In this document: piece by piece, positions 13,937-31,440 of the stretch
Position numbering within the stretch: position 1 is the stretch's first letter
Layout: each line of letters begins with the position of its first letter
NCBI GenBank assembly: GCA_036652815.1
Contig: JAVVVE010000006.1
Coordinates: 11,405-75,404 of the forward strand
Origin: Lachnospiraceae bacterium
GTDB taxonomy: Bacteria > Bacillota > Clostridia > Lachnospirales > Lachnospiraceae
Direction of reading: 5' to 3'
DNA length: 64,000 bases
The notes under the pieces: model-generated
Seen by the model: the letters and a program-made list of their open reading frames with translations, nothing else
Databases searched by the model: none
Told to the model about the DNA's origin: nothing
Translations under genes and position numbers: made by a program

Positions 13937-14395
13937 TTAAATATCAAATATTATATCTTCCAGTGAAATAATGGGGCAAGATATCTTTTGGCACAGTTCT
14001 CGTTCTATTGCCTCAAATGCAAAGATTGCCGAGACAATAACTGCATCTACTTCTTCAAGTTCATCGTCAGGTTCCACTACTTTTATTTCCGAATAAGTAC
14101 TGCCTATATTTTTATCTATGGCATACTTTACTTCAATCGATGTGCCTTTCAGATCCTCATATAATCGATTTCCCATTTCTCCCATTCCATAGATTGCAAT
14201 TGATTTATAATCATTGTCTGTAAAATATTTTTCAACTGTTTTTCCCTCTTGTTTTAAATTTAGCCACTGGTTTAATACATTATAATATGTTTTAAACTTG
14301 TATACTTTGTCATCTCGTTTTGCTAATTTTATTCCCCCTGCAAATCCTCCTAATATTCCAATAACTGTTGCAATTACTGTTGTTGTTTTTTTCAT
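13937..14395 (-). CDS. Small single-pass membrane protein carrying a PglD_N/NeuD-N-like Rossmann module
   Basis: 152 aa. Has an N-terminal hydrophobic helix (TTTVIATVIGILGGFAGGI) followed by IAIYGMGEMGNRLYEDL...YAIDKN...VVEPDD...VDAVIVSA. The same module type appears at the N-termini of three neighbouring transferases. Confidence 0.5.
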   Translation of the reverse strand: MKKTTTVIATVIGILGGFAGGIKLAKRDDKVYKFKTYYNVLNQWLNLKQEGKTVEKYFTDNDYKSIAIYGMGEMGNRLYEDLKGTSIEVKYAIDKNIGSTYSEIKVVEPDDELEEVDAVIVSAIFAFEAIERELCQKISCPIISLEDIIFDI

Positions 14396-19496: not shown

Positions 19497-20894
19497 TTAA
19501 ATCAAGCTCTCAATAAAATCCATATAATCTTCCCAGCCATTCTGCTTCTCTATATATTCTTTCGCTTGGTATCCACATTCTGCAAGATTTTTTCTATCTT
19601 GATTCAATAATTCAATGCTTGTAACGATACCCCTAATATCTTCTCTATCATGTACAAAACCATTTATTCCCTGCTGAATTACTCCATTCACTCCTGAAGT
19701 ATTCGTTACAATCGGAACTACTCCAAAGCTCATCGCCTCCAACATGGCAATTGCACAACCTTCGTAATCCGATAAATTAATAAAAATATCTTTATCCTTC
19801 CAAAATTGATTCATCTCATAAAATGAAATCATACCATAAAGATGAACTTTATTTGATAATTGATTGGTGTCTACAAACTGTTTGATTGTTGGATAAAAAC
19901 TTCCGTCTCCTGCAATATGTAACTGATAATTAATCTTTTTATTTTCTAACAATTGAATAAATGGAATTAATAAATCCGCTCTTTTTTGTGCTTTTTCTAT
20001 TCTTGCAGCATAGGCAAGATGAATGGCTTGTCCCTGTGGCGTATAGCTCTTATAAAATCCTTTTTCACAGCGAATGGCATTCTGCTTCAGATATACTTTT
20101 TCAGGATTCACACCATATTGATTGATAAAATTTTCTCTTATTTCTTTACTAACGCACAAAAATACATCTGTAGTATCTATAATTGCATTATTCTCATCAT
20201 ATATCCTTTCGTAGTCTGAATGTATTAAGGATATAATTCTAACTTGATCCCCATACTGCTTTTTCGCTATATAAGCTGCTGCATAAACTTGTGCCAATTG
20301 ATTAATAACAATGGTACAAGGTAACAATTCTCTTATTCTTTTTAAGACGCTATCGACCGCCTCTTTATAATGAGACAAATTAAAATCAAATAATTCCGTT
20401 TCATGTTGCATAGAAGTATAAAAATTAGAATTCTTTTTATTTATATTTGAAAATAACTTGACAGCATATCCTCTTTCCTTTGCAGAGACCGCAATATCGA
20501 TGGCTAATTTCACTGCCCCACTTAACACAAAACCCTCTGAAAAATCAAAAATAACATTCCTTTTCTTTTCTTCTAGGTATCTTGCATCCATAAAAGATAA
20601 TATAATCTGTTCTCTCAAAATAATCCTATCTTTGTTTATTCCCATGTCCAACAGCTGTTTTTTTATTTCACTGTAATACGTACTCGCTATCACAATAAAA
20701 AAAGAAGAAGATAGGGTTAGTAGCTTTTCCGGTGACAGGATTGGTTTTCCTTCCATTTGCTTTCCGCATTTATATTTATCATTATCGAGAAAACACACGA
20801 TGTCTACCCCTAAGTCGGTAAGTATCTGAAATGTATGCAAAGCACCATTAGAAGCACCAAATATAATCACTTTTTGTTTATGTAGATTTTTCAT
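19497..20894 (-). CDS. Family 4 (GT1-fold) glycosyltransferase with an N-terminal PglD_N-like module
   Basis: 465 aa. Has the E-x7-E motif (EGCAIAMLEAMSFGVVP) with a preceding HIAGDG. The N-terminus is KVIIFGASNGALHTF...CFLDNDKYKCGKQMEGKPI. Confidence 0.85.
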   Translation of the reverse strand: MKNLHKQKVIIFGASNGALHTFQILTDLGVDIVCFLDNDKYKCGKQMEGKPILSPEKLLTLSSSFFIVIASTYYSEIKKQLLDMGINKDRIILREQIILSFMDARYLEEKKRNVIFDFSEGFVLSGAVKLAIDIAVSAKERGYAVKLFSNINKKNSNFYTSMQHETELFDFNLSHYKEAVDSVLKRIRELLPCTIVINQLAQVYAAAYIAKKQYGDQVRIISLIHSDYERIYDENNAIIDTTDVFLCVSKEIRENFINQYGVNPEKVYLKQNAIRCEKGFYKSYTPQGQAIHLAYAARIEKAQKRADLLIPFIQLLENKKINYQLHIAGDGSFYPTIKQFVDTNQLSNKVHLYGMISFYEMNQFWKDKDIFINLSDYEGCAIAMLEAMSFGVVPIVTNTSGVNGVIQQGINGFVHDREDIRGIVTSIELLNQDRKNLAECGYQAKEYIEKQNGWEDYMDFIESLI

Positions 20895-20903
20895 ATGGTA
20901 TCA

Positions 20904-22277
20904 TTACCTCTCTGCATATGTTATACAATAGATGCGGTTGTACACCCTCGCATCTATTTGATATTTCGGATACTCATTGAATCCGGTAAGCAAATCTTCT
21001 TGTACCGCCGACAAGGTTTTCTTCACTTCCTGTACTTCCCGTATTATATATCCCTGTGCTTCTATCTGTGCCTTAATCTCTGCCCCGTAATGATAAGTGA
21101 ACTCCTGTGAGGAAGCACACAATAGCCTGCCGCCTACTTCTCCCGTTACTAATCGTTCCATCGTCGTAATGTGTCTAATGTTAAATACTCTGAGCAATAT
21201 CTGTGTATTTGGTTTCAGAAGCGGTTTTATCTTCTCCAATAAGGTCAGACCCAGCTTCTCTATCATACATTCTATTAAGATACTATCGAATCGCCTATGT
21301 GTCTCTACTAACATTTCTATGACATGACTGTCTTGATTCTCTTCATAAACTTCATCTAAAAATCGTGCTGCAATCTGCCTTCTGATTGGATGATCTTCGA
21401 TACCTACTACATACATCGCCGGCTGCTTGTCTTTGAGTTCGATAGCTAATGCTCCAAGACCGCATCCGATCTGTAAGATCTGTCTTCCATCTTGCTCTAA
21501 TATTTTATTTAGTACATATTGATTACAGACCGCATGATGGTTCCAATTCATTCCCTGCCATTTGTCTTCCAATCGCAATTTGTTTGTCATCATAATCTGT
21601 TCTCTATTGATATCTTTATGCGTAAAAGAAACATTCATAAAATGATGAATAAATGAATTGCGGCAGATCACTGCTTTTTTTCCAGCACATAATGCTCTGA
21701 TATTATAATCATCATCTTCATAATTACCAATGGCAAATCCTGTATCAAATATGCCAATCTCATCGATTAAGCTACGTCTCAGTAAGAGGCAGAAAGCAAC
21801 CAGTCTTAAAGTATGCCATGCCGAAGCATCACTTTCAGCTATTGTAGAAGCGAATTCCTGCATCTGTTCCAAATCATCGTTATAAGGAACCTGTATCATC
21901 TGTTTTCCCACAGTCGCATTGGTCAGCGGTCCTATCATATCAATCTCTCTATGTTCTTCCAAATAGGTCACCATATTGAATAACCATCTGTGTGTAACGA
22001 TCGTATCATTATTCAGTAACAGGATATAATCTCCTTTGGCAATTGCTATGCCTTGATTGCATCCTCCCGCAAAGCCCATGTTGCTAGGGTTCTTGAGTAG
22101 GATAATATCCTCTATCGTATCCAGATATTGTATCGTCTCTGCATTAGAAGCATTATCCACGATAATAATCTCATACTCAATATCTCTTGTATAGCGTCTG
22201 ATACTCTCTAAACATTGTTTGGTATAAGATAGCTGATTATAGGATAAGATGATTATACTACAATGCGGTGTATGCAT
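20904..22277 (-). CDS. Fusion protein: GT2 glycosyltransferase (N-terminal) and class I SAM methyltransferase (C-terminal)
   Basis: 457 aa. The N-terminal part has CSIIILSYNQLSYTKQCLESI, VDNAS and LLLNNDT (GT2). The C-terminal part has ILQIGCGLGALAIEL...VVGIEDHP (methyltransferase motif I). Confidence 0.8.
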   Translation of the reverse strand: MHTPHCSIIILSYNQLSYTKQCLESIRRYTRDIEYEIIIVDNASNAETIQYLDTIEDIILLKNPSNMGFAGGCNQGIAIAKGDYILLLNNDTIVTHRWLFNMVTYLEEHREIDMIGPLTNATVGKQMIQVPYNDDLEQMQEFASTIAESDASAWHTLRLVAFCLLLRRSLIDEIGIFDTGFAIGNYEDDDYNIRALCAGKKAVICRNSFIHHFMNVSFTHKDINREQIMMTNKLRLEDKWQGMNWNHHAVCNQYVLNKILEQDGRQILQIGCGLGALAIELKDKQPAMYVVGIEDHPIRRQIAARFLDEVYEENQDSHVIEMLVETHRRFDSILIECMIEKLGLTLLEKIKPLLKPNTQILLRVFNIRHITTMERLVTGEVGGRLLCASSQEFTYHYGAEIKAQIEAQGYIIREVQEVKKTLSAVQEDLLTGFNEYPKYQIDARVYNRIYCITYAER

Positions 22278-22341: not shown

Positions 22342-23640
22342 TTACTTTTTTTCCATACAAAATATTGCATACAGAGGCACTGCATGAATCCCATTTTCAT
22401 ATCCAAAATTTTTCAGTGAAAATCTGTACACATTTTCCGGATTATATTTTTTTATAAACTGATTTAAACTTTTTGACTTATTATGCTCTCCCTTTTTTAC
22501 CTCTATCGCATACCTGCCACTTTGGTCAAATGTAACAAAATCTAGTTCTGCAGAATATTCGCTTTCCCAATAAAACAAGTCATATCCATTCGCAGCTAAC
22601 TGAGTAGCTACATAGTTCTCGGTTACCGCACCCAAAAAGGTGTTTCCCATTCCCGACAAAATCGTTTGCTGCATGATGCCTGACTTCATAACCAGTAAAC
22701 CCACATCACACATATATAGTTTAAAAGATGCCAAGTCCACGTACGCTGACACCGGTTCATTTCCCTGTTCTGTCTTTTGACACTTAAGAACGACTCCAGC
22801 CGCATTCAACCATTCAATTGCCTCTCCAAATATAGTCGCTGTTCCACCTTTTTGGACTACTTTATATTGGAATTTTTTATTTTCTTTGGCTAGTTGTGCC
22901 TGTATTGAATTAAAACATGCTCTTATTTTTACACTGCTGGCATTTTCTGCATACTTTGCCATGTCTGCCAGATAGTTGTTCATAATTTCATTTTGTACGA
23001 GTGGAATATCCAATAATTTCCCGCTTTCCATGAATTGATTAATACATGCCGGCATACCTCCAACAATCAGATATTGTCGATATCTTTCTATTGCTTTTTG
23101 GTGAAGGGCCTCTACAAGAGCGGTCATCCCCTTATAACTATTTCTTATCTCATTACACAGAAAGTCTTCCTTCATAGCCCATAGAAATTCTTCAAAATCC
23201 AATGAATACAACGTCATTGTTTCCACTTTTCCTACTGGGAAAGAATATCTGGCACGATTAATTGCCACTCCTAACAGACTTCCAGCTGCAACAATATGGT
23301 ATTCCGGTGTATCTTCGCAAAAATACTTTAAGGACGTCAAAGCACGTTCGCATGCCTGGATTTCATCTAGTATGATTAAAGTTTCTCCAGGAACTATTCT
23401 CTCTCCGGTACTCGCTTCCAAATATTGAATCAATCTTTCCGGAGCAATATTGCTTTCAAAAAAGCTTGCTATTGTTTCATTTATTTCCAGATTGACATAG
23501 ACCATGTTTTTATAATATTTTTCCCCAAAAGCTCGTAAAATATAGGTCTTTCCAACCTGTCTTGCTCCATTTAAGATAAGTGGTTTTCGATTTTTCTTTT
23601 GCTTCCACTGAAATAATTTTTCTTCAATTTTTCTTTTCAT
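22342..23640 (-). CDS. AAA+ ATPase of the AAA_14/DUF4143 type
   Basis: 432 aa. Has Walker A (GARQVGKT) and Walker B (LIILDEIQ), with a long C-terminal DUF4143-like region ending in a restriction-endonuclease-like ELDFV...EVK segment. Confidence 0.8.
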   Translation of the reverse strand: MKRKIEEKLFQWKQKKNRKPLILNGARQVGKTYILRAFGEKYYKNMVYVNLEINETIASFFESNIAPERLIQYLEASTGERIVPGETLIILDEIQACERALTSLKYFCEDTPEYHIVAAGSLLGVAINRARYSFPVGKVETMTLYSLDFEEFLWAMKEDFLCNEIRNSYKGMTALVEALHQKAIERYRQYLIVGGMPACINQFMESGKLLDIPLVQNEIMNNYLADMAKYAENASSVKIRACFNSIQAQLAKENKKFQYKVVQKGGTATIFGEAIEWLNAAGVVLKCQKTEQGNEPVSAYVDLASFKLYMCDVGLLVMKSGIMQQTILSGMGNTFLGAVTENYVATQLAANGYDLFYWESEYSAELDFVTFDQSGRYAIEVKKGEHNKSKSLNQFIKKYNPENVYRFSLKNFGYENGIHAVPLYAIFCMEKK

Positions 23641-23699: not shown

Positions 23700-23753
23700 G
23701 ATTAATACGTCAAGAAAAATCAGGATTTTCTGATTTTTCTTGACGTATTAATC
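23700..23753 (-). terminator. 24-bp perfect inverted repeat (hairpin), a probable terminator or module boundary
   Basis: GATTAATACGTCAAGAAAAATCAG / GATTTT loop / CTGATTTTTCTTGACGTATTAATC was read directly. It lies 27 nt downstream of the stop of the SDR gene at 23780. Both sides are followed by short, interrupted T runs. Confidence 0.55.
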
Positions 23754-23779: not shown

Positions 23780-24844
23780 TTATACTACAGAGCGGTGTAT
23801 GCATAGGATTCTCTCCAGTCCTTCGTCTATCCCGACTCTTGCTTCAAAACCCAGCCGATATAGTTTTTCTGCATTCAGTATCTCTTTTGTCATCGTAGAA
23901 TAGCCTGCTTTCTCTGTCTCACTTGCACAAGCCTCGATGACTGTAACACCGGCTGCTCTTGCCAATGTCTTGGCAAAATTTTTAATCGTCACTTGACTAT
24001 TGGGATTGGCCACGTTATAGGCTTCTCCTACAGTGCCTCGTAATAAAATCGTAAGTATCGCCACTGCTGCATCTGCCAGATAGGTATAAGAGCGGTATTG
24101 TGTGCCGGCACTCTTTAATATGATATCCTTTTGTGCAAAAGCCCGTTTCATAAATTGCACATCGGCTTTGGTGCTGTTTTCCGACATCGTGGCTCCATAG
24201 ATATAAGACAGCCTGGCGACGCAGGTATTCAGTCCATACTCTTGATAATAAGCGGCACATAATGTCTCTGCTGCTCTTTTTCCTTCCGGGTAGCAGGAAC
24301 GGGGCTGCATCGATAACACTTCCCCTGCATCACTCTCTAAATATCCGGTTTCACGGTGTATTGTCTGTTTGCCATAGATTTCTCCACTACTTAATAGTAG
24401 TACTCTCTCCGGTTGATGTACTTGTTTTCTACTATGCTCTAAGAGATTCATCATTCCCAAAAAAGCACTTTGCATTGTCTGTACCGGTTGTGATGCAAAT
24501 GCTTGTGGATGATTATTTCCGGCTGCGTGGATTACATAATCCCATTCTATCTCTGTCTTGATCTCATCGCAAATATCTGCGACAAGTATCTGTAAGTCGG
24601 TTCGATTCCGATAAGGGTAGAATCTACGTCGGCTCTTTATCTCATCCCTGCAGAATGCTAAGATTCTCATCTCAAGCTGTGCAATATCGTTCATTTTGAG
24701 AAATAGGTCTACCAGATAAGAACCGATTAATCCGGTCGCACCTGTGACAAGGATTGTCTTATGTGCGAAACGTTCCCAAGGTAACGCTTCCCTGCATATT
24801 TCCTCTAATTCCCTCTGATACAGTGGACTATCCAAGATCGTCAT
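23780..24844 (-). CDS. NAD(P)-dependent epimerase/dehydratase-family (extended SDR) enzyme
   Basis: 354 aa. Has VTGATGLIGSYL (Rossmann) and YPEGK (YxxxK). It lies adjacent to an IspD/TarI-like cytidylyltransferase. Confidence 0.85.
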   Translation of the reverse strand: MTILDSPLYQRELEEICREALPWERFAHKTILVTGATGLIGSYLVDLFLKMNDIAQLEMRILAFCRDEIKSRRRFYPYRNRTDLQILVADICDEIKTEIEWDYVIHAAGNNHPQAFASQPVQTMQSAFLGMMNLLEHSRKQVHQPERVLLLSSGEIYGKQTIHRETGYLESDAGEVLSMQPRSCYPEGKRAAETLCAAYYQEYGLNTCVARLSYIYGATMSENSTKADVQFMKRAFAQKDIILKSAGTQYRSYTYLADAAVAILTILLRGTVGEAYNVANPNSQVTIKNFAKTLARAAGVTVIEACASETEKAGYSTMTKEILNAEKLYRLGFEARVGIDEGLERILCIHRSVV

Positions 24845-24856
24845 AACGAGCTCCTT

Positions 24857-25573
24857 TTATTTCATCCATTCGTCTTTCGAAGAATGTAACAGTGCTTTGA
24901 ATATCTCAATATCATCTGTCGTGGTTAATTTGAGGTTCTTCTCAGATCCTGTTGAAAAATATATTTCTTCTCCCAATTCAATCATCAAGGTACAGGTCGC
25001 GATAGAGTCTGCAATGCCTCTGTGTGCTGCTTCCTCATGTGCCCACACCAATTTTCCCAAAGGAAAAGACTGCGGTGTCTGTGTCCGTGCCAGCTTATCT
25101 CTATGTATCATCGTCGTGGAACTCTCCCTGTTATTCGTCAACAGCATTGCTTCTGCACAAGGCACTACCGTAATTGCAGAGCCATGCTGTATACAGCAGC
25201 TAATATTATCCGATATAATCTCCTGTGATACCAGTGGACGGATAGCATCATGTATTACCACTATATCTGTATCCTCGCACACACCATGTAATCCCATGAT
25301 ACCACTTTTTAACGAACCTTGTCCGTTTTTGCCACCCGGAAACACCCATTTTAATTTTGTAATATTGAATTGCTTGGCATATGCCTTTAAGATCTCCTGC
25401 CAGCCCTCCAGGCATACTACTGCGATGGCATCAATATTGGGATGACGTTCAAATGCCTCCATCGTATATACAATAACCGGTCTGTCATTCACATTGATAA
25501 ACTGCTTAGGAATATCCTGATTCATGCGTTGCCCGCTTCCCCCTGCGATTAGTAATGCAATATTCATACTCAT
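24857..25573 (-). CDS. IspD/TarI-family cytidylyltransferase (polyol-phosphate, e.g. ribitol-5-P, cytidylyltransferase-like)
   Basis: 238 aa. N-terminal ALLIAGGSGQRM...PKQF motif of the IspD/TarI family. It overlaps the upstream TagF-like gene by 4 nt. Confidence 0.85.
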   Translation of the reverse strand: MSMNIALLIAGGSGQRMNQDIPKQFINVNDRPVIVYTMEAFERHPNIDAIAVVCLEGWQEILKAYAKQFNITKLKWVFPGGKNGQGSLKSGIMGLHGVCEDTDIVVIHDAIRPLVSQEIISDNISCCIQHGSAITVVPCAEAMLLTNNRESSTTMIHRDKLARTQTPQSFPLGKLVWAHEEAAHRGIADSIATCTLMIELGEEIYFSTGSEKNLKLTTTDDIEIFKALLHSSKDEWMK

Positions 25574-26805
25574 TCTCCCATCTTATAAATCTGTTCAAAT
25601 AATCTGGCTGATGAATGTCCATCTATTGTTTGGAACATTCTGGTACGGGACTGTCTTCTGGCTGCTCTATGTGTATCCTCCAGCAGCACCTGATTCACTG
25701 CATGCATCAGCTCTTCCATCGTTGCCGCTTTTATCTCCGGCATATAAGTATCCTGTGGAATATAGCTGTCTCTGGTATTCGCTTCATATAATGCCAGGTC
25801 GTACTGAAATGCTACAACCGGTCTGTCTAACAGCATATAATCAGTATAGACAGAAGAATAGTCCGTAATCAGTACGTCTATCAGCCCTAGAAAAGAATAA
25901 ACATCTATTTGTGCATCTGCACTGATGATATTAGAATATTGTATCTCTTCAAATCGTTCTTTCAGTTTGGATTTTGGATGTAATTTGGTAACGAGTATTC
26001 TCTTGTGTTCTATCAAATATTGATTGAAAAGCTCCAGATCCATCACTGTAAAAAAAACTTCTTCCGAATCTCTAAATGTAGGTAGATAAGCCAGCAAGGT
26101 GTATCCTTCTGTCTTTTTCTCCTGCAATCTCTGCAGTAATCGCTGCTCCTGCACTGTTAATAGGTTATGTATCAGACTCTCTGTTTCTGCAAACAGCATA
26201 TCATTTCTCGGATATCCTTCGATGATAATATGTTTTGCATCAGTCCGAAAAGCCGATTGAAATATCTCGGACATCGCTTCAGAAGTCGCTAATGTATAAT
26301 GATTTGGCTTCTCATCCGACATTCTTCGTAACCAAGTCTGCCACCGTTCTCCTATATTCTTTGGGTGACGCACCCGATCAAATACATTATCATAATTTGT
26401 CTTCTTATTGCCGGAACCATGCCATAGATTGATCTTAACAGCTCCACCCGATAGCCAAAAAGATATGTCCTTTGAATAATTATCAAAGATATATCTACCT
26501 GCATGCAGTTCATACCATATCCCCTTTAGTGAGCGATAATAGTAGGCTTCCTGTCCACAAGCCTGCAGATAAGTTACGATATCAGTTTGATGAGAAATCC
26601 AAATGGCATGGATTTTATCAGCTTTATGCTGCCTCGTATACAGATAAAGATATCTGGGATTCTCTGCAAATCTTTGTCCAAAACCGGAACCAAATAACCA
26701 TATATTTTTATCTCTGTGGCACAAAAAAGAGAGTCCGTACACAGGTAGCAATAATAATTGTCCCCAATATTTGATTCTCTTAATTATGTTCCCATACGCC
26801 ATCAT
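25570..26805 (-). CDS. CDP-glycerol/CDP-ribitol polyol-phosphotransferase (TagB/TagF/TarL family)
   Basis: 411 aa. Contains INLWHGSGNKK and ITDYSSVYTDYMLLDRPVV, the two hallmark regions of the Glyphos_transf family. Confidence 0.85.
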   Translation of the reverse strand: MMAYGNIIKRIKYWGQLLLLPVYGLSFLCHRDKNIWLFGSGFGQRFAENPRYLYLYTRQHKADKIHAIWISHQTDIVTYLQACGQEAYYYRSLKGIWYELHAGRYIFDNYSKDISFWLSGGAVKINLWHGSGNKKTNYDNVFDRVRHPKNIGERWQTWLRRMSDEKPNHYTLATSEAMSEIFQSAFRTDAKHIIIEGYPRNDMLFAETESLIHNLLTVQEQRLLQRLQEKKTEGYTLLAYLPTFRDSEEVFFTVMDLELFNQYLIEHKRILVTKLHPKSKLKERFEEIQYSNIISADAQIDVYSFLGLIDVLITDYSSVYTDYMLLDRPVVAFQYDLALYEANTRDSYIPQDTYMPEIKAATMEELMHAVNQVLLEDTHRAARRQSRTRMFQTIDGHSSARLFEQIYKMGE

Positions 26806-26811
26806 CCTATC

Positions 26812-28311
26812 CTACCACTTCTTAAGAAATGTCTTACGTTCCATCGGATCCATTTTGCTAATCTGCTCATCCATATAATAAGAATCGCTCTTCATATGCT
26901 GTGTGGATACTTCTTCAAAGATAGCACCATTGACCGATGAAAAAGAATGATATTCGCCACGCAATACAGTCTGCATATCACCCGGTTTTAAGGTCTTGTC
27001 TTCTTGTCCATCCATCTGTATCTCTAAGTCTCCATAGAGTACCTGAAAAGTCTCTTCTTTAATCTTATGTGCATGAGAAGGGTGTTTTTGTCCCGGCAGT
27101 ACGATGATATATTTCTTACAGTACTCTCTATTAATAATATTGATAATAATAGCACCATGCTGTCTAAAATGTTTCATCCCATAATGATGAGACAGCTCCA
27201 CTTCAAAGTTATCTCCGAGTGCAATGCCTGCCTCGTAGAGCATGCCCTTAGCGTCATGTACTGCAGTACGCACGATACCGACTCCGGATACTTTAGGCTG
27301 TTCCACGATCTTCTCATTAAGAGCGTAGTCTTTGGAAGCCACCATGCCATCTTTGAATCCACCACTGGTGAGCTGCTTTTCTTGACAAGGCATCGCATAG
27401 AACACATCTGCTTCCGTCATAGTCTCTCCCGCCTGAATAGGATGTTTGGCATAGACTCCTCGCATCAGAGAGGTCAGGGAATCTATCTCTGCCTGCGTTA
27501 CATACTTGTCATTTGGTTTACGTACCTGGCAGATCTCTTTTGCCAATAACGCGGATTTTACCCAGTTCTCTGCCTGCTCCGGATTCATCGAGTACGCATT
27601 TAATCGGATGGTGTCAGTTGGCAGTCCTACATGGCGCTCCAGTATCTGTGCGCCCTTCGCGATCGCTAACATCGGCACCACCGTATTATCAGGATCCTCA
27701 TGTCCCGAATAGCCAATGGTAACATCCCGATATCTACGATTCATCCTATCGATGAAGTCCAATTGTAAGCCTTCTAACGGTGCCGGATATTCTGCGATGC
27801 AATGTAAGAAAGCAAACTCACAGCCCTTATGTGTAAAGAAATTATATATCTTATCAATCTCAGCTAAGGTCTTTCCACCCGTAGAGATAATCAAAGGTTG
27901 CTTAGAAGCTGCCGCTTTCATCAAAAGCGGCCAGTCGAGTGCACTGCAGCTGGCGATCTTAATGATATCCAATCCCTGATCCATACACCACTCTACCCCG
28001 GTCTCATCAAAGGGGGTACTCATGGTAAGCATACCTTCCGCGCGTACCGCATCCACTAATCGAGATAGTTGGTCGTAACTCAACCTGGTACTTAAGAATC
28101 TCGGTATATGTTTTACATCTTCTCTGTCTTTAAAGTCCGGATGAATAAAAGTATCCAGATCCCGATATTGTAATTTCACTGCAGCTTTAATATTGTATTG
28201 ACGGGCTATCCTGCCCATGGCTTTGATAATATCGATACCATGCTCTACGCTACCCTGATGACTATTCGCCATCTCAAATATAAATAGATTCTCCAGTACA
28301 TTACTTTTCAT
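26812..28311 (-). CDS. NeuB-family nonulosonic acid synthase with a SAF domain and an extra C-terminal cupin domain
   Basis: NeuB barrel motifs (FEMANSHQGS, LHCIAEYPAP, GYSGHEDP) are followed by a SAF-like segment (VYAKHPIQAGETMTEADV). After that comes a roughly 140-aa cupin (LPGQKHPSHAHKIKEETFQVLYGDL...GEYHSF). The start is placed at the ATG at 28309-28311 with an AAGGGGG RBS. Confidence 0.8.
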   Translation of the reverse strand: MKSNVLENLFIFEMANSHQGSVEHGIDIIKAMGRIARQYNIKAAVKLQYRDLDTFIHPDFKDREDVKHIPRFLSTRLSYDQLSRLVDAVRAEGMLTMSTPFDETGVEWCMDQGLDIIKIASCSALDWPLLMKAAASKQPLIISTGGKTLAEIDKIYNFFTHKGCEFAFLHCIAEYPAPLEGLQLDFIDRMNRRYRDVTIGYSGHEDPDNTVVPMLAIAKGAQILERHVGLPTDTIRLNAYSMNPEQAENWVKSALLAKEICQVRKPNDKYVTQAEIDSLTSLMRGVYAKHPIQAGETMTEADVFYAMPCQEKQLTSGGFKDGMVASKDYALNEKIVEQPKVSGVGIVRTAVHDAKGMLYEAGIALGDNFEVELSHHYGMKHFRQHGAIIINIINREYCKKYIIVLPGQKHPSHAHKIKEETFQVLYGDLEIQMDGQEDKTLKPGDMQTVLRGEYHSFSSVNGAIFEEVSTQHMKSDSYYMDEQISKMDPMERKTFLKKW

Positions 28312-30202
28312 GGAATACCCCCTTATGAAATACTCTGTCCAATTTATCATCTTTTAGGTCTGTCAATATCGTGTCTATTGTGCTTTGAATCTGAGTCATA
28401 TATGTTTTTCCCATCGTGCAAGCTGTTATCAGTTCTTTTTTCTCTTCTCCCTCTACTTGATAGATGTCCTGCAGCAACTCTGTCGTGCTGTTCTGCATGA
28501 GATGCTGCACATAATGGTAGATGGTATCTTCTTCAATCTCTGCCGTCAGTGCATTGACTTGTTTCATGATCCTTTTCATGTCTCCTGATGCATATCTGTT
28601 TTGTAAGGTTAAGGTAAGCATCTGATCATAGGCTCTGCTCCCACGCTTGGCGAGCGATAAGATATGTTCCAGTCTCTCTGGCATGTCATAGAGATAGGTC
28701 TCAAATCGTTGCTTCTGTTCTGCATTCAGTAAATCAGGTGTGTCTCTTATAATCGCAGCGATATCTACTGTTTGCCTGCACTCTCTTGCAATGGCATCCC
28801 GTAGTGTCATCATCTCGGTGCCGTGTATCATCGCACCGCCCTCTGTTGCATCGATGACGTGCAATCCCCGATAGTTTTTTATCTCATATTCAAACCAATC
28901 CAGATAAATCTTAAATTCCAAACTGGAGGCGATAGGTTGTCCATCTATTCCCTCGACTTCTATCGTATTCTGACTTTCGATAGCGAGATTTTGTTCCCCG
29001 CGTACTGTTTCTTTGGCATGCGTGCGATGGTCGGTATAAGCCAGATCCTGTCCCACCAGGATAATGGTAGTGAATCCCAAGAGCTTTGCAATCGAAAAAG
29101 CTTCATTCGCTACGGAACCTCCCGACGATGTGATCGGCAGCAGCACCTCTTCTTTGGATAAAAATTCTTGTACATGTGGATTCATATCCTGTACAAAAAA
29201 CAAATTATCCGGATGAGCTTCTAATAATTGATATCTACTGGATAAATTACAAAAGAGAGGGATTTCCCGAATCCTTTCCTCCGTAAAATGTGCCAAATCT
29301 TTTTCTCCATCAATCGAAACAAAAGCATCCGGCACTATATGATGTGCCAGTAGTACTCTTAATGCCGAATCCGCTGCAATCAAAAAGCTTTTTCCGGCTG
29401 CTTTTTTTAATTCCTCTATGTTATGATCCAGGGATGGTCCCGCCGCTACGATGATCGCAGGCAGGGTATGTGGTAATCTCTGCCACAGCTCCTGTATCGA
29501 TTTACTATAAGCAAAGCTCCTATAATTCATTATCGTATTCAGGTAATAGCTCGCACCGAAACGTCCCATCACATCCTGGCTGGCGGTGATGGTCTGACAG
29601 ATCACTTCTAATTTTTTATAGAACGCATCCCATTCCTCATGGAAAAGGACCGGATAATTCAGATAGCTTTCGAGAATCAGTTCCTTGATATCCCTAATAT
29701 CTAATTCTCTCGCCAACATGTCTTCATAGCTGAGTTCTCCCTCTTCTGCCACGACAGGTACGACACGCTCATCTGCTAAGATCGCACTGCAGTCAAACTC
29801 TTCCAATACCTTTAGAAATAGAGTCAGCGACGGCTCATAAAGCAGGATCCTGACTTCTTTTTCGCAGTTCTCCAGTAGTGTCCTAACATACATCCCATTT
29901 CCAAACCCAAACAACACGATCTTATTCTTATAGTTCGTCATCTTTAGTCCGCGAAACCAGGTGTCCAGGAGATAATCGGAATCATAAAGAGAATCTAACT
30001 GATACTGCTGCGTCCCCTTATCTACATACAATACTTTTCGCTCTTCTATCAGTTCCACTCCGGGTATGAGCTCTTGTGTCTCGCTTGGTTGCTCTAATGC
30101 ATGCAGCAGATTATGATATAAGATCGGATCTTTTTGTTGCAGTACCTTTAGGTTAGTCTCCAGATGACTGTCTATATTCACATCCCTGTTCTTCTGTGTC
30201 AT
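28301..30202 (-). CDS. maf: Motility-associated factor (Maf, DUF115/MAF_flag10) flagellin glycosyltransferase
   Basis: 633 aa. The central AIIVAAGPSLDHNIEELKKAAGKSFLIAADSALRVLLAHHIVPDAFVSIDGE segment is typical of DUF115 Maf proteins. It is the second gene downstream of fliC. Confidence 0.85.
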   Translation of the reverse strand: MTQKNRDVNIDSHLETNLKVLQQKDPILYHNLLHALEQPSETQELIPGVELIEERKVLYVDKGTQQYQLDSLYDSDYLLDTWFRGLKMTNYKNKIVLFGFGNGMYVRTLLENCEKEVRILLYEPSLTLFLKVLEEFDCSAILADERVVPVVAEEGELSYEDMLARELDIRDIKELILESYLNYPVLFHEEWDAFYKKLEVICQTITASQDVMGRFGASYYLNTIMNYRSFAYSKSIQELWQRLPHTLPAIIVAAGPSLDHNIEELKKAAGKSFLIAADSALRVLLAHHIVPDAFVSIDGEKDLAHFTEERIREIPLFCNLSSRYQLLEAHPDNLFFVQDMNPHVQEFLSKEEVLLPITSSGGSVANEAFSIAKLLGFTTIILVGQDLAYTDHRTHAKETVRGEQNLAIESQNTIEVEGIDGQPIASSLEFKIYLDWFEYEIKNYRGLHVIDATEGGAMIHGTEMMTLRDAIARECRQTVDIAAIIRDTPDLLNAEQKQRFETYLYDMPERLEHILSLAKRGSRAYDQMLTLTLQNRYASGDMKRIMKQVNALTAEIEEDTIYHYVQHLMQNSTTELLQDIYQVEGEEKKELITACTMGKTYMTQIQSTIDTILTDLKDDKLDRVFHKGVFHEK

Positions 30203-30549
30203 AATACGATCTCCATCTTCTCCATCCTATCCAGATATAGCATCAGATTCTCTTTGGTCTCATAATGAAGGACATCTATCATCGCAAACCAGTCTTCTCT
30301 TTCCAGTGCTTCCATGATCCGTTCCATCTGCCCCTGCCAATAAGTCATATCTTCTGCTTCGTCCTGTAATTGCGGCAGCTCATAAGAAGAGATAATAATA
30401 GGTATGACTGCCTGTAGGAGATTAATGAATACCGGCATCAGACGTTCGGCCGCATATGCTCTGTTCTTAGCGATAGCTTCTGTCAGCAAGTCTATGGTCT
30501 CTATGGTCTCTTTTATCTTATCTGCAAATATCTGCATCGTTGCATCCAT
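30199..30549 (-). CDS. Hypothetical small acidic helical protein, translationally coupled to maf
   Basis: 116-aa ORF whose stop overlaps the maf start (ATGA at 30199-30202). No recognisable family. Confidence 0.6.
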   Translation of the reverse strand: MDATMQIFADKIKETIETIDLLTEAIAKNRAYAAERLMPVFINLLQAVIPIIISSYELPQLQDEAEDMTYWQGQMERIMEALEREDWFAMIDVLHYETKENLMLYLDRMEKMEIVL

Positions 30550-30624: not shown

Positions 30625-31440
30625 TTATCCCAGTAATGACAATACGCCTTGATTTGACTGATTTGCCTGTGCTAACATAGACTGACCTGCCTGTCCGAGA
30701 ATATTATTCTTGCTGTATTCAACCATCGTCTTAGCCATATCCGTATCACGAATCGCTGCTTCTGCTGATTGTGTGTTCTCAACAACGTTATCTAAGTTCT
30801 TAACTGTGTATTCAAGTCTGTTCTGAATAGCACCCAGTGCAGAACGCTGTTTGGATACTTGTGCAATAGCACTTGTAATCTTAGAGATAGCTGTTCTTGC
30901 AGTCGATACTTGAGTTAATGTAATAGAATTGATTCCGAGACCTGTTGCATTCATATTCTTGATACTGATTCTGATTCTTTGTGCAGACTTGTTGGCAGCA
31001 CCAACCTGAATGTCATGGTTGAATTTACCGGACAATAGTCCCAATGTGTTGAACTGTGTGGACTGCTGTACTCTGTTAATCTCACTAACCAGTGCCTTTA
31101 CTTCGGTATTGATAGCTCTTCTATCTGCTGTGGTATTCGTTCCGGTAGAAGATTTGACTGCTAATTCATTCATACGCTGTAACATGTTATGTACTTCTGT
31201 CAAAGCACCCTCTGCTGTCTGTACGACTGCGATACCATCTTGAGCATTAGCGGAAGCTTGTGTTAAGCCTCTGATCTGGCTTCTCATCTTCTCACTGATG
31301 GTTAATCCTGCTGCATCATCTGCTGCACGGTTAATCTTGTAACCTGAAGATAACTTCTCTGTTGTCTTAGCTTGTGCACTTGTTGTGATACCTAACTGTC
31401 TGTTAGCATTCATTGCTGTTAAATTGTGTTGTACTATCAT
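30625..31440 (-). CDS. fliC: Flagellin
   Basis: 271 aa. Has a canonical flagellin N-terminus (MIVQHNLTAMNANRQL...INRAADDAAGL) and C-terminus (ILGQAGQSMLAQANQSNQGVLSLLG), with a strong AAGGAGG RBS. Confidence 0.95.
   Translation of the reverse strand: MIVQHNLTAMNANRQLGITTSAQAKTTEKLSSGYKINRAADDAAGLTISEKMRSQIRGLTQASANAQDGIAVVQTAEGALTEVHNMLQRMNELAVKSSTGTNTTADRRAINTEVKALVSEINRVQQSTQFNTLGLLSGKFNHDIQVGAANKSAQRIRISIKNMNATGLGINSITLTQVSTARTAISKITSAIAQVSKQRSALGAIQNRLEYTVKNLDNVVENTQSAEAAIRDTDMAKTMVEYSKNNILGQAGQSMLAQANQSNQGVLSLLG

Follow-up and report, generated by a model that had tools for sequence, protein, structure and literature searches.

In Clostridioides difficile, the TagF-like protein CD0244/FtaD is encoded beside fliC, and the Type A glycan cannot be formed without it (PMC10714395). 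Its activity as a cytidine diphosphate (CDP)-N-methylthreonine:N-acetylglucosamine (GlcNAc) phosphotransferase on GlcNAc-peptides has been reconstituted (bioRxiv 10.64898/2026.02.12.704994). The Fta system uses a CDP donor, forms a phosphodiester to a flagellin sugar, and is cytoplasmic and soluble (PMC10714395; bioRxiv 10.64898/2026.02.12.704994). The present analysis concerns a 64-kb stretch of DNA (the window) from a Lachnospiraceae bacterium, namely positions 11,405-75,404 of contig JAVVVE010000006.1 (GCA_036652815.1), in which three adjoining genes encode a TagF/TagB-family CDP-alcohol phosphotransferase, an IspD/TarI-like cytidylyltransferase, and an extended short-chain dehydrogenase/reductase (SDR). 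We lean towards a reading in which the IspD-like enzyme and the SDR provide a CDP-alditol, from which the soluble TagF-like enzyme transfers alditol phosphate to the glycan that Maf installs on flagellin.

Like ftaD and ftaB (CD0242) of C. difficile, the TagF-like gene and the gene for a CDP-donor nucleotidyltransferase stand in an operon that adjoins the flagellin gene, and this layout is kept across related loci; the two systems are likened by function and layout only. A CDP donor, a phosphodiester to a flagellin sugar, and soluble cytoplasmic enzymes are proposed here as well. In contrast, the donor would differ. C. difficile makes CDP-N-methylthreonine via FtaA, FtaB, and FtaC, whereas the IspD/TarI-like enzyme and the SDR predict a polyol, and the unit running from the gene of the small protein p116 to that of the SDR has no counterpart of the phosphoserine-phosphatase-like FtaA and no methyltransferase to match FtaC, the CDP-threonine N-methyltransferase. 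The acceptor would differ too: GlcNAc is placed by the glycosyltransferase (GT) FgtA in C. difficile, whereas Maf would place what is likely an ulosonic acid here. The comparison suggests that the trio may work like FtaD with a teichoic-acid-type donor.

The donor pair has its own described counterparts. HS5.18/HS5.17 of Campylobacter jejuni (CDP-6-D-glucitol) and Mnp1/Mnp2 of Streptococcus pneumoniae (CDP-mannitol) are likewise adjacent PF01128 and PF01370 genes. HS5.17 is an NADPH-dependent CDP-6-D-glucitol synthase and the partner of the PF01128 enzyme HS5.18; fructose-6-phosphate is cytidylylated first and the CDP-ketose is reduced second, and a PF01128 + PF01370 gene pair is a published signature of CDP-alditol synthesis (PMC10918830). 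These pairs, and the route from CDP-D-xylulose to CDP-D-arabinitol, feed capsules or lipopolysaccharides, whereas the pair in the window lies in a flagellin operon. The teichoic acid and capsule systems TagF/TarF/TarL with TarI/TarJ, and Bcs1/Bcs3 of Haemophilus influenzae, have the family, fold, catalytic His, and CDP-binding motif in common with the TagF-like protein of the window. On the other hand, the wall teichoic acid context of TagO, TagA, TagGH, and LCP genes is absent from the window, and the reductase is neither the zinc alcohol dehydrogenase of TarJ nor the adh_short type of Bcs1.

Two further systems tie polyol phosphates to protein glycans, the first of them as a proposal. De Maayer et al. 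found orthologs of TagB, TagD, and LtaS in a variable region of enterobacterial Flag-2 loci and proposed, from genomes alone, that teichoic-acid-like polymers occur within the flagellin glycan (PMC6993521). As in the window, teichoic-acid-type genes thus lie inside a flagellin glycosylation region (Flag-2 variable region 1, VR1, of Enterobacterales), and both cases are known from genomes alone. However, Flag-2 concerns lateral flagella of Gram-negative bacteria and CDP-glycerol (TagD), and it has no IspD/SDR pair or NeuB-cupin. In mammals, ISPD, fukutin, and FKRP use an IspD-family CDP-polyol to put polyol phosphate by a phosphodiester into the protein O-glycan of alpha-dystroglycan (PMC4873967). 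That system is eukaryotic and secretory, and its transferases belong to the LicD family; LicD-family genes also stand beside the TagF ortholog in about ten loci related to the present one. The preliminary description of the window had called polyol phosphate an uncommon protein-glycan modification. Uncommon it is, but not unprecedented, since FtaD on the FliC glycan and TagB/TagD/LtaS of Flag-2 are precedents. The present case stands apart by its donor pathway, with a CDP-ketose-reductase pair, by its place among Maf and NeuB-cupin, and by how broad and modular the cassette is within Lachnospiraceae.

The genes of this region all lie on the minus strand. In transcription order, flgK/flgL, csrA, flaG, fliD, fliS, a FlgN-like gene, the flagellin gene, and the genes for p116, Maf, and NeuB-cupin precede the trio. 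The trio itself was confirmed as three minus-strand open reading frames (ORFs) that match PF04464, PF01128, and PF01370, and it does lie directly behind Maf and the NeuB-like synthase, as first described (Table 1). The stop codon of p116 and the start codon of Maf overlap by 4 nt, and the Maf and NeuB-cupin ORFs as listed overlap by 50 nt. The NeuB-cupin and TagF-like genes are parted by 6 nt, the TagF-like and IspD-like genes overlap by 4 nt, and 12 nt separate the IspD-like gene from the SDR gene. A 21-bp inverted repeat begins 29 nt past the SDR stop codon; this hairpin probably terminates transcription, although its T-tract is weak. Because of the tight same-strand packing and the hairpin after the SDR, the trio is, as judged from the gene layout, the distal half of a six-gene unit p116-Maf-NeuB/cupin-TagF-IspD-SDR that starts right after flagellin. 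The GC content of the trio (0.42) equals that of the flagellar core; values of 0.29-0.37 appear only further downstream, and the AT-rich part of the island begins only below about 22 kb. Homologs of p116 hold the same position in related loci. Maf also matches an NCBIfam PseD-like domain with 120 bits, which is under the cut-off of that profile.

The TagF-like protein matches PF04464 Glyphos_transf with E 3.4e-55 (187.9 bits against a cut-off of 22.1; profile positions 11-366 of 367), and it is a soluble protein that consists of the catalytic module only. Both motifs quoted in the preliminary description, INLWHGSGNKK and TDYSSVYTDYMLLDRP, are found in it. Its matches in the PDB are Staphylococcus aureus TarL (8VA1), Staphylococcus epidermidis TagF (3L7I), and the capsule polymerase Cps3D. 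His129 of the WHG motif falls on TagF His444, which is the mutated position in PDB 3L7J; His276 aligns with index 584, and the LITDYSS motif is aligned as well. His129, His276, and LITDYSS, including D315-Y316-S317-S318, are invariant in 23 orthologs. The AlphaFold 2 model has a mean predicted local distance difference test (pLDDT) score of 84 and a predicted template modelling (pTM) score of 0.85. In Foldseek, this model is closest to TagF 3L7I (E 1.8e-20, TM 0.69), followed by TarL 8VA1, and its TM to the Hib polymerase Bcs3 (8A0C/8A0M) is 0.72-0.74. The modelled fold is of the GT-B-like two-Rossmann type known from TagF and TarL. The NCBIfam equivalog scores are far under their cut-offs (TarF 90 against 550, TarL 73 against 1000, TarB 55 against 500). 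By this profile comparison, the protein belongs to the PF04464 family but is orthologous to none of the teichoic acid enzymes.

The cytidylyltransferase matches PF01128 IspD with E 3.8e-35. Its best PDB matches are all TarI enzymes, in the order 4JIS (E 2.7e-33), 3F1C, 6XHP, and 2VSH, and it is nearer to solved TarI than to true IspD enzymes. The motifs GGSGQRM...PKQF, VIHDAIRP, and TQTPQ are intact. Against the profile NF001183, it scores 151 with a cut-off of 166, and the window has no medium-chain dehydrogenase. It is 31% identical to the N-terminal domain of an IspD-adh_short fusion from related loci. A role as the genuine IspD of isoprenoid synthesis was considered and rejected: another IspD of the same genome (contig C33) scores 199 bits against 122 for the protein in the window, and the two are 24% identical.

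The SDR matches PF01370 Epimerase (E 5.2e-42) and also PF16363, but not PF00106. By sequence, its nearest counterpart in the PDB is C. jejuni HS5.17 (8V4G/8V4H; E 1.2e-32), at about 26% identity. The AlphaFold 2 model (pLDDT 95) has its best fold match in 8V4H_B, with a TMq of 0.85 compared with 0.78 for UDP-xylose synthase, and places a helix at residues 7-17 before the first Rossmann strand at 30-34. Such an N-terminal helix was called unique to HS5.17 by its authors (PMC10918830). When the SDR was aligned to 8V4G and read against the residues named in PMC10918830, it was found to keep the YxxxK motif of HS5.17 as YPEGK and, three residues before this Tyr, the equivalent of Arg164, which contacts the beta-phosphate. 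The equivalents of Arg233, the cytosine-stacking Tyr295, and the NADP-binding Arg56 and Lys60 are also kept. The window had been described as holding the enzyme pair of a Bcs1-type CDP-ribitol synthase. A cytidylyltransferase and an SDR reductase are indeed paired, but the Bcs1 sub-type does not apply, for the reductase of Bcs1 is of the classical adh_short kind and works before the cytidylyl group is transferred, whereas this SDR belongs to PF01370/PF16363 and is nearest to HS5.17 by sequence and fold. The similarity points instead to those pairs that cytidylylate the ketose phosphate before the CDP-ketose is reduced (HS5.18/17, Mnp1/2, and CDP-D-xylulose to CDP-D-arabinitol). A 4,6-dehydratase was also ruled out. 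The best NCBIfam match, dTDP-glucose dehydratase, reaches 103 bits against a cut-off of 365. Glu155 of the SDR corresponds to Glu140 of HS5.17, and the Met139-Glu140 pair of HS5.17 reads Gly-Glu in the SDR. The SDR is accordingly no dehydratase, because Gly-Glu stands, as in non-dehydrating reductases, where a dehydratase has Asp/Glu or Asp/Lys.

Orthologs of the TagF-like protein were sought with one genome per species, and the content of each locus was established by tblastn search and ORF clustering. This yielded 80 loci, every one in Lachnospiraceae or unclassified Clostridia, with TagF orthologs that are 47-68% identical to the protein of the window. A recurring gene order on one strand is Flagellin-(p116)-Maf-[CMP-synthetase-like, extra Maf or GT1]-NeuB-cupin-TagF. 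Where at least 8 kb of sequence precedes the TagF ortholog (60 loci), a flagellin gene stands upstream of it in 39 cases and NeuB-cupin is no more than 4.5 kb away in 48. Of 200 sampled genera of the family, nine have TagF orthologs (at least 49% identity); all nine have flagellin, compared with 103 of the 200 overall, and in all nine NeuB-cupin adjoins the TagF ortholog. Orthologs of NeuB-cupin (at least 65% identity) were found in only 11 of the 200 genera, so that the two proteins occur together almost one-to-one, and NeuB-cupin is better conserved (65-83% identity) than the TagF-like protein. As far as gene neighbourhoods tell, the most constant partner of TagF is NeuB-cupin and not the IspD/SDR pair; NeuB-cupin and TagF make up the constant core, beside which the donor module varies.

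The variable part can be followed in the 71 loci that extend at least 3 kb beyond the 3' end of TagF, of which 52 have genes for CDP-polyol synthesis within 4.5 kb of the TagF ortholog. An IspD-like gene with an extended SDR gene is found in 32 of the 71, and in 2 more together with TagD. In 10 loci, the IspD-like protein (about 30% identical to that of the window) is accompanied by a zinc alcohol dehydrogenase in place of the SDR, a TarI/TarJ-like arrangement, and five of these ten also have a ribulose-phosphate 3-epimerase. Three loci (L026, L031, and L050) carry an IspD-adh_short fusion, which is the true Bcs1 arrangement, and five have TagD alone, a 129-aa protein of the glycerol-3-phosphate cytidylyltransferase type. 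The strongest argument that the TagF-like enzyme uses a CDP-polyol is that four analogous CDP-polyol routes share this one slot. On the TagF tree, the type of donor gene changes 12 times, compared with 34 times when the labels are shuffled, and support for the TagD-linked clade is 100%; relatedness alone can give rise to such clustering.

Taken with the operon, the synteny in about 80 loci, the restriction to flagellated genera, and the lack of a second TagF-family gene in the genome, these donor swaps lend genomic support to the earlier proposal that polyol phosphate goes onto the flagellin glycan rather than into wall teichoic acid. The proposed route draws on observations, namely the gene identities, the packing of the operon, its synteny and phyletic distribution, and the conserved fold and active-site residues; from these we infer which substrates are used, in what order the enzymes react, which acceptor is modified, and if a single unit or a chain is added. 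The IspD/TarI-like enzyme would first join cytidine monophosphate (CMP) from cytidine triphosphate to a ketose phosphate, probably pentulose-5-phosphate or fructose-6-phosphate, to give a CDP-ketose. The extended SDR would then reduce the keto group with NADPH to a CDP-alditol, such as CDP-ribitol, CDP-arabinitol, or CDP-hexitol. Successively, the TagF-like enzyme would move the alditol phosphate to a hydroxyl of the sugar placed by Maf and release CMP. The acceptor sugar would probably be an ulosonic acid made by the NeuB-cupin enzyme, and the product a phosphodiester-linked polyol. The GT2 and GT4 enzymes encoded downstream may extend the glycan. All steps would take place in the cytoplasm before the flagellin is exported.

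The acceptor in this scheme could be another one, as the sequence does not fix it. The polyol phosphate might go onto a nucleotide-activated sugar, or directly onto Ser/Thr of flagellin, before or independently of the transfer by Maf. The tight pairing with NeuB-cupin and the CMP-synthetase-like gene (cluster 8) of many loci would fit a modification at the CMP-sugar level. To our knowledge, however, TagF-family enzymes extend acceptor-bound glycans and not nucleotide sugars. Moreover, FtaD acts on GlcNAc that is already on the FliC peptide (bioRxiv 10.64898/2026.02.12.704994), and we regard an addition before or independently of Maf as very improbable.

Several observations weigh against the addition of alditol phosphate to the Maf-installed glycan, and they are given here with the rival explanations on which they bear. 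The SDR differs from HS5.17 at the alditol contacts, with Ser/Tyr for Thr195/Gln196 and Lys for Arg208, and the cytosine-contacting Asp212 is Gln. UDP-xylose synthases match it almost as well as HS5.17 does (E 1e-30 and 1e-32, respectively). Because the contact residues differ and UDP-xylose synthases score so close, the reaction and substrate of the SDR are not fixed by sequence. Since Thr195/Gln196 are replaced by Ser/Tyr, an alditol other than glucitol is likely; the enzyme class is probably that of HS5.17. In addition, 19 of the 71 loci have no CDP-polyol gene near the TagF ortholog. The TagF-like enzyme might modify the flagellin glycan with a group other than a simple polyol phosphate. 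In that case, the IspD-like enzyme and the SDR would activate and tailor a different phosphorylated alcohol, for instance a phosphorylated ulosonic-acid intermediate from the NeuB-cupin enzyme, or the SDR might have nothing to do with the CDP donor and serve as a decarboxylase or epimerase of nucleotide sugars. The unusual CDP-N-methylthreonine taken by FtaD (bioRxiv 10.64898/2026.02.12.704994) and the constancy of NeuB-cupin, rather than IspD/SDR, as the partner of TagF speak for this, as do the UDP-xylose synthase matches and the altered sugar contacts. We nevertheless find it quite unlikely, since the same slot elsewhere holds textbook genes for CDP-ribitol (TarI/TarJ-like with Rpe, Bcs1-like fusions) or CDP-glycerol (TagD), the SDR shares with HS5.17 its CDP-pyrophosphate arginines, cytosine-stacking Tyr, and N-terminal helix, and the cytidylyltransferase is nearest to the TarI enzymes.

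A different target is suggested by five closely related species of a single clade (L010-L014), in which a TagF-IspD-SDR-GT2-GT4-GT2 block follows birA-DUF6145-dus-greA-lysS, away from flagellin. The flagellin gene and two Maf genes of these genomes are on other contigs; the block may act on flagellin in trans, and a non-flagellar target is possible there. The trio might accordingly serve an envelope glycopolymer, that is, a teichoic-acid-like secondary wall polymer or a capsule, and its flagellar neighbourhood would then be a shared variable region for surface glycans. Characterised PF04464 enzymes mostly make wall teichoic acids or capsules, which favours this alternative. The genome also has one LCP gene and one weak WecG-like gene, both on other contigs, and a weak Wzy_C-like membrane protein and Glf are encoded about 30 kb further downstream on the contig, past the left edge of the window. 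As previously described, profile searches found no TagGH, TagO, TagA, or LCP genes anywhere in the 64 kb. Within the island (1-30549), no protein with more than one hydrophobic segment was found, and the 30-kb island encodes no flippase, no ABC exporter, and no priming transferase or other protein that spans the membrane more than once. The genome assembly, with a length of 2.25 Mb, is 86% complete. It holds one PF04464 gene, the TagF-like gene of the window, and one PF00953 gene on another contig, presumably MraY, so that no TagO was found; TagO or further TagF genes could be missed at this completeness. The trio is also packed into one hairpin-closed unit with maf, and its synteny with flagellin, Maf, and NeuB-cupin extends over dozens of species, with orthologs in flagellated genera only in the 200-genus sample. 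These points make an envelope polymer unlikely, and the gene context and the equivalog scores place the trio, as far as can be read from the sequence, outside the wall teichoic acid pathway.

Two general points also tell against modification of the flagellin glycan by the trio. A literature search on flagellin glycosylation in Lachnospiraceae found nothing specific and no glycan structure, and because related genomes are not independent, the signal looks stronger in the phyletic and tree statistics than it is.

The flagellins of Lachnospiraceae rank among the chief flagellar antigens in the gut microbiota. If polyol phosphates are indeed added, these anionic groups would alter the surface charge of the filament and could affect recognition by antibodies, lectins, and phages. 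The principle known from FtaD, in which a TagF-like enzyme and a CDP donor modify flagellin after glycosylation, would then extend from one pathogen to a large commensal clade. A conserved cassette with swappable donor modules leads to clear mass predictions that can be tested cheaply, and several cultured strains carry the cassette. Anaerocolumna sedimenticola CBA3638 (L022) and Eubacterium sp. MSJ-13 (L023) have the IspD-like gene with the extended SDR gene, Anaeromicropila populeti 743A (L039) and Anaerosporobacter faecicola (L041) the TarI/TarJ-like arrangement, and Anaerosacchariphilus polymeriproducens (L050) the Bcs1-like fusion. A broader picture, which we offer as doubtful, is that, within a widespread Lachnospiraceae group of gut and rumen, the flagellins carry teichoic-acid-like ribitol, arabinitol, hexitol, or glycerol phosphate in phosphodiester linkage to an unusual ulosonic acid made by NeuB-cupin and placed by Maf, possibly as a short chain or as a bridge extended by GT2/GT4. 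Species would swap Abp/Mnp-like, TarI/TarJ-like, Bcs1-like, or TagD modules and thereby vary the surface chemistry met by the host and by phages.

Table 1. Features of the flagellin-proximal unit and its downstream flank, in window coordinates.
Feature	Position	Strand	Basis or remark
Flagellin, 271 aa; presumed protein target	30625-31440	-	PF00669 E 8e-41, PF00700 E 5.8e-26
p116, 116 aa; first gene of the post-flagellin unit	30199-30549	-	no Pfam match
Maf, presumed flagellin glycosyltransferase	28301-30202	-	PF01973 MptE-like E 4.6e-39
NeuB-SAF-cupin, ulosonic-acid synthase-like	26812-28350	-	PF03102 E 1.7e-42 + Cupin_2
TagF/TagB-family CDP-alcohol phosphotransferase, 411 aa	25570-26805	-	PF04464
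IspD/TarI-like cytidylyltransferase, 238 aa	24857-25573	-	PF01128
Extended SDR, 354 aa; predicted NADPH-dependent CDP-ketose reductase (CDP-alditol synthase)	23780-24844	-	PF01370
Perfect 21-bp inverted repeat closing the unit	23703-23750	no strand	terminator-like scan + sequence
AAA_14/DUF4143 ATPase gene	22342-23640		between inverted repeat and GT genes
GT2-methyltransferase fusion + GT4 glycosyltransferase	19497-22277	-	Pfam

Downstream of the unit, the AAA_14/DUF4143 gene and the 21-bp repeat part the SDR gene from the GT genes, and the GC content drops there. In the nearest relatives, GT2/GT4/GT2 genes follow directly after TagF-IspD-SDR. The AAA_14/DUF4143 gene was rejected as a member of the module, being absent at that position in all related loci; together with the hairpin, it appears to be local to this genome, and the two look like an insertion. 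The GT2-methyltransferase and the GT4 enzyme probably continue the same glycan pathway. At the other side of the window, positions 42-64 kb hold housekeeping genes.

Some recurring genes of the related loci were noted in addition. Where a CDP-polyol gene is missing, the gene after the TagF ortholog encodes a conserved protein of 775 aa without a Pfam match (cluster 11; 24 loci, including L045, L037, L040, and L053). Other such loci (cluster 20; L056, L063, and L065) have a 603-aa weakly sulfatase/LtaS-like protein in this place, which recalls the LtaS orthologs of Flag-2 VR1. Many loci have, between Maf and NeuB-cupin, a gene for a 334-aa CMP-synthetase-like protein composed of CTP_transf_3 and an unknown C-terminal half; in the window, this gene is missing from that position. 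Contig C48 of the same assembly (4,531 bp) carries a second Maf, the 5' end of which is cut by the contig edge, a CMP-synthetase-like gene that shares 63% identity with the gene found before NeuB-cupin in other species, and a convergent 463-aa FliD_C ORF. This contig may be part of a second locus for flagellin modification and could supply the CMP activation that is missing from the window.

To the left of the window (contig C6, 1-11404), the contig continues with an SDR, a CN-hydrolase, and a B12-binding radical SAM enzyme. The same stretch encodes the weak Wzy_C protein (532 aa, O-antigen ligase-like, 34 bits), the UDP-galactopyranose mutase, VanZ, and a 544-aa spermine-synthase-like protein, and it may mark the start of a true envelope-polysaccharide region. 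Inside the window, positions 13937-14395 encode a protein of about 150 aa with one N-terminal hydrophobic segment and no Pfam match, homologs of which recur 3' of glycosyltransferases in 35 related loci.

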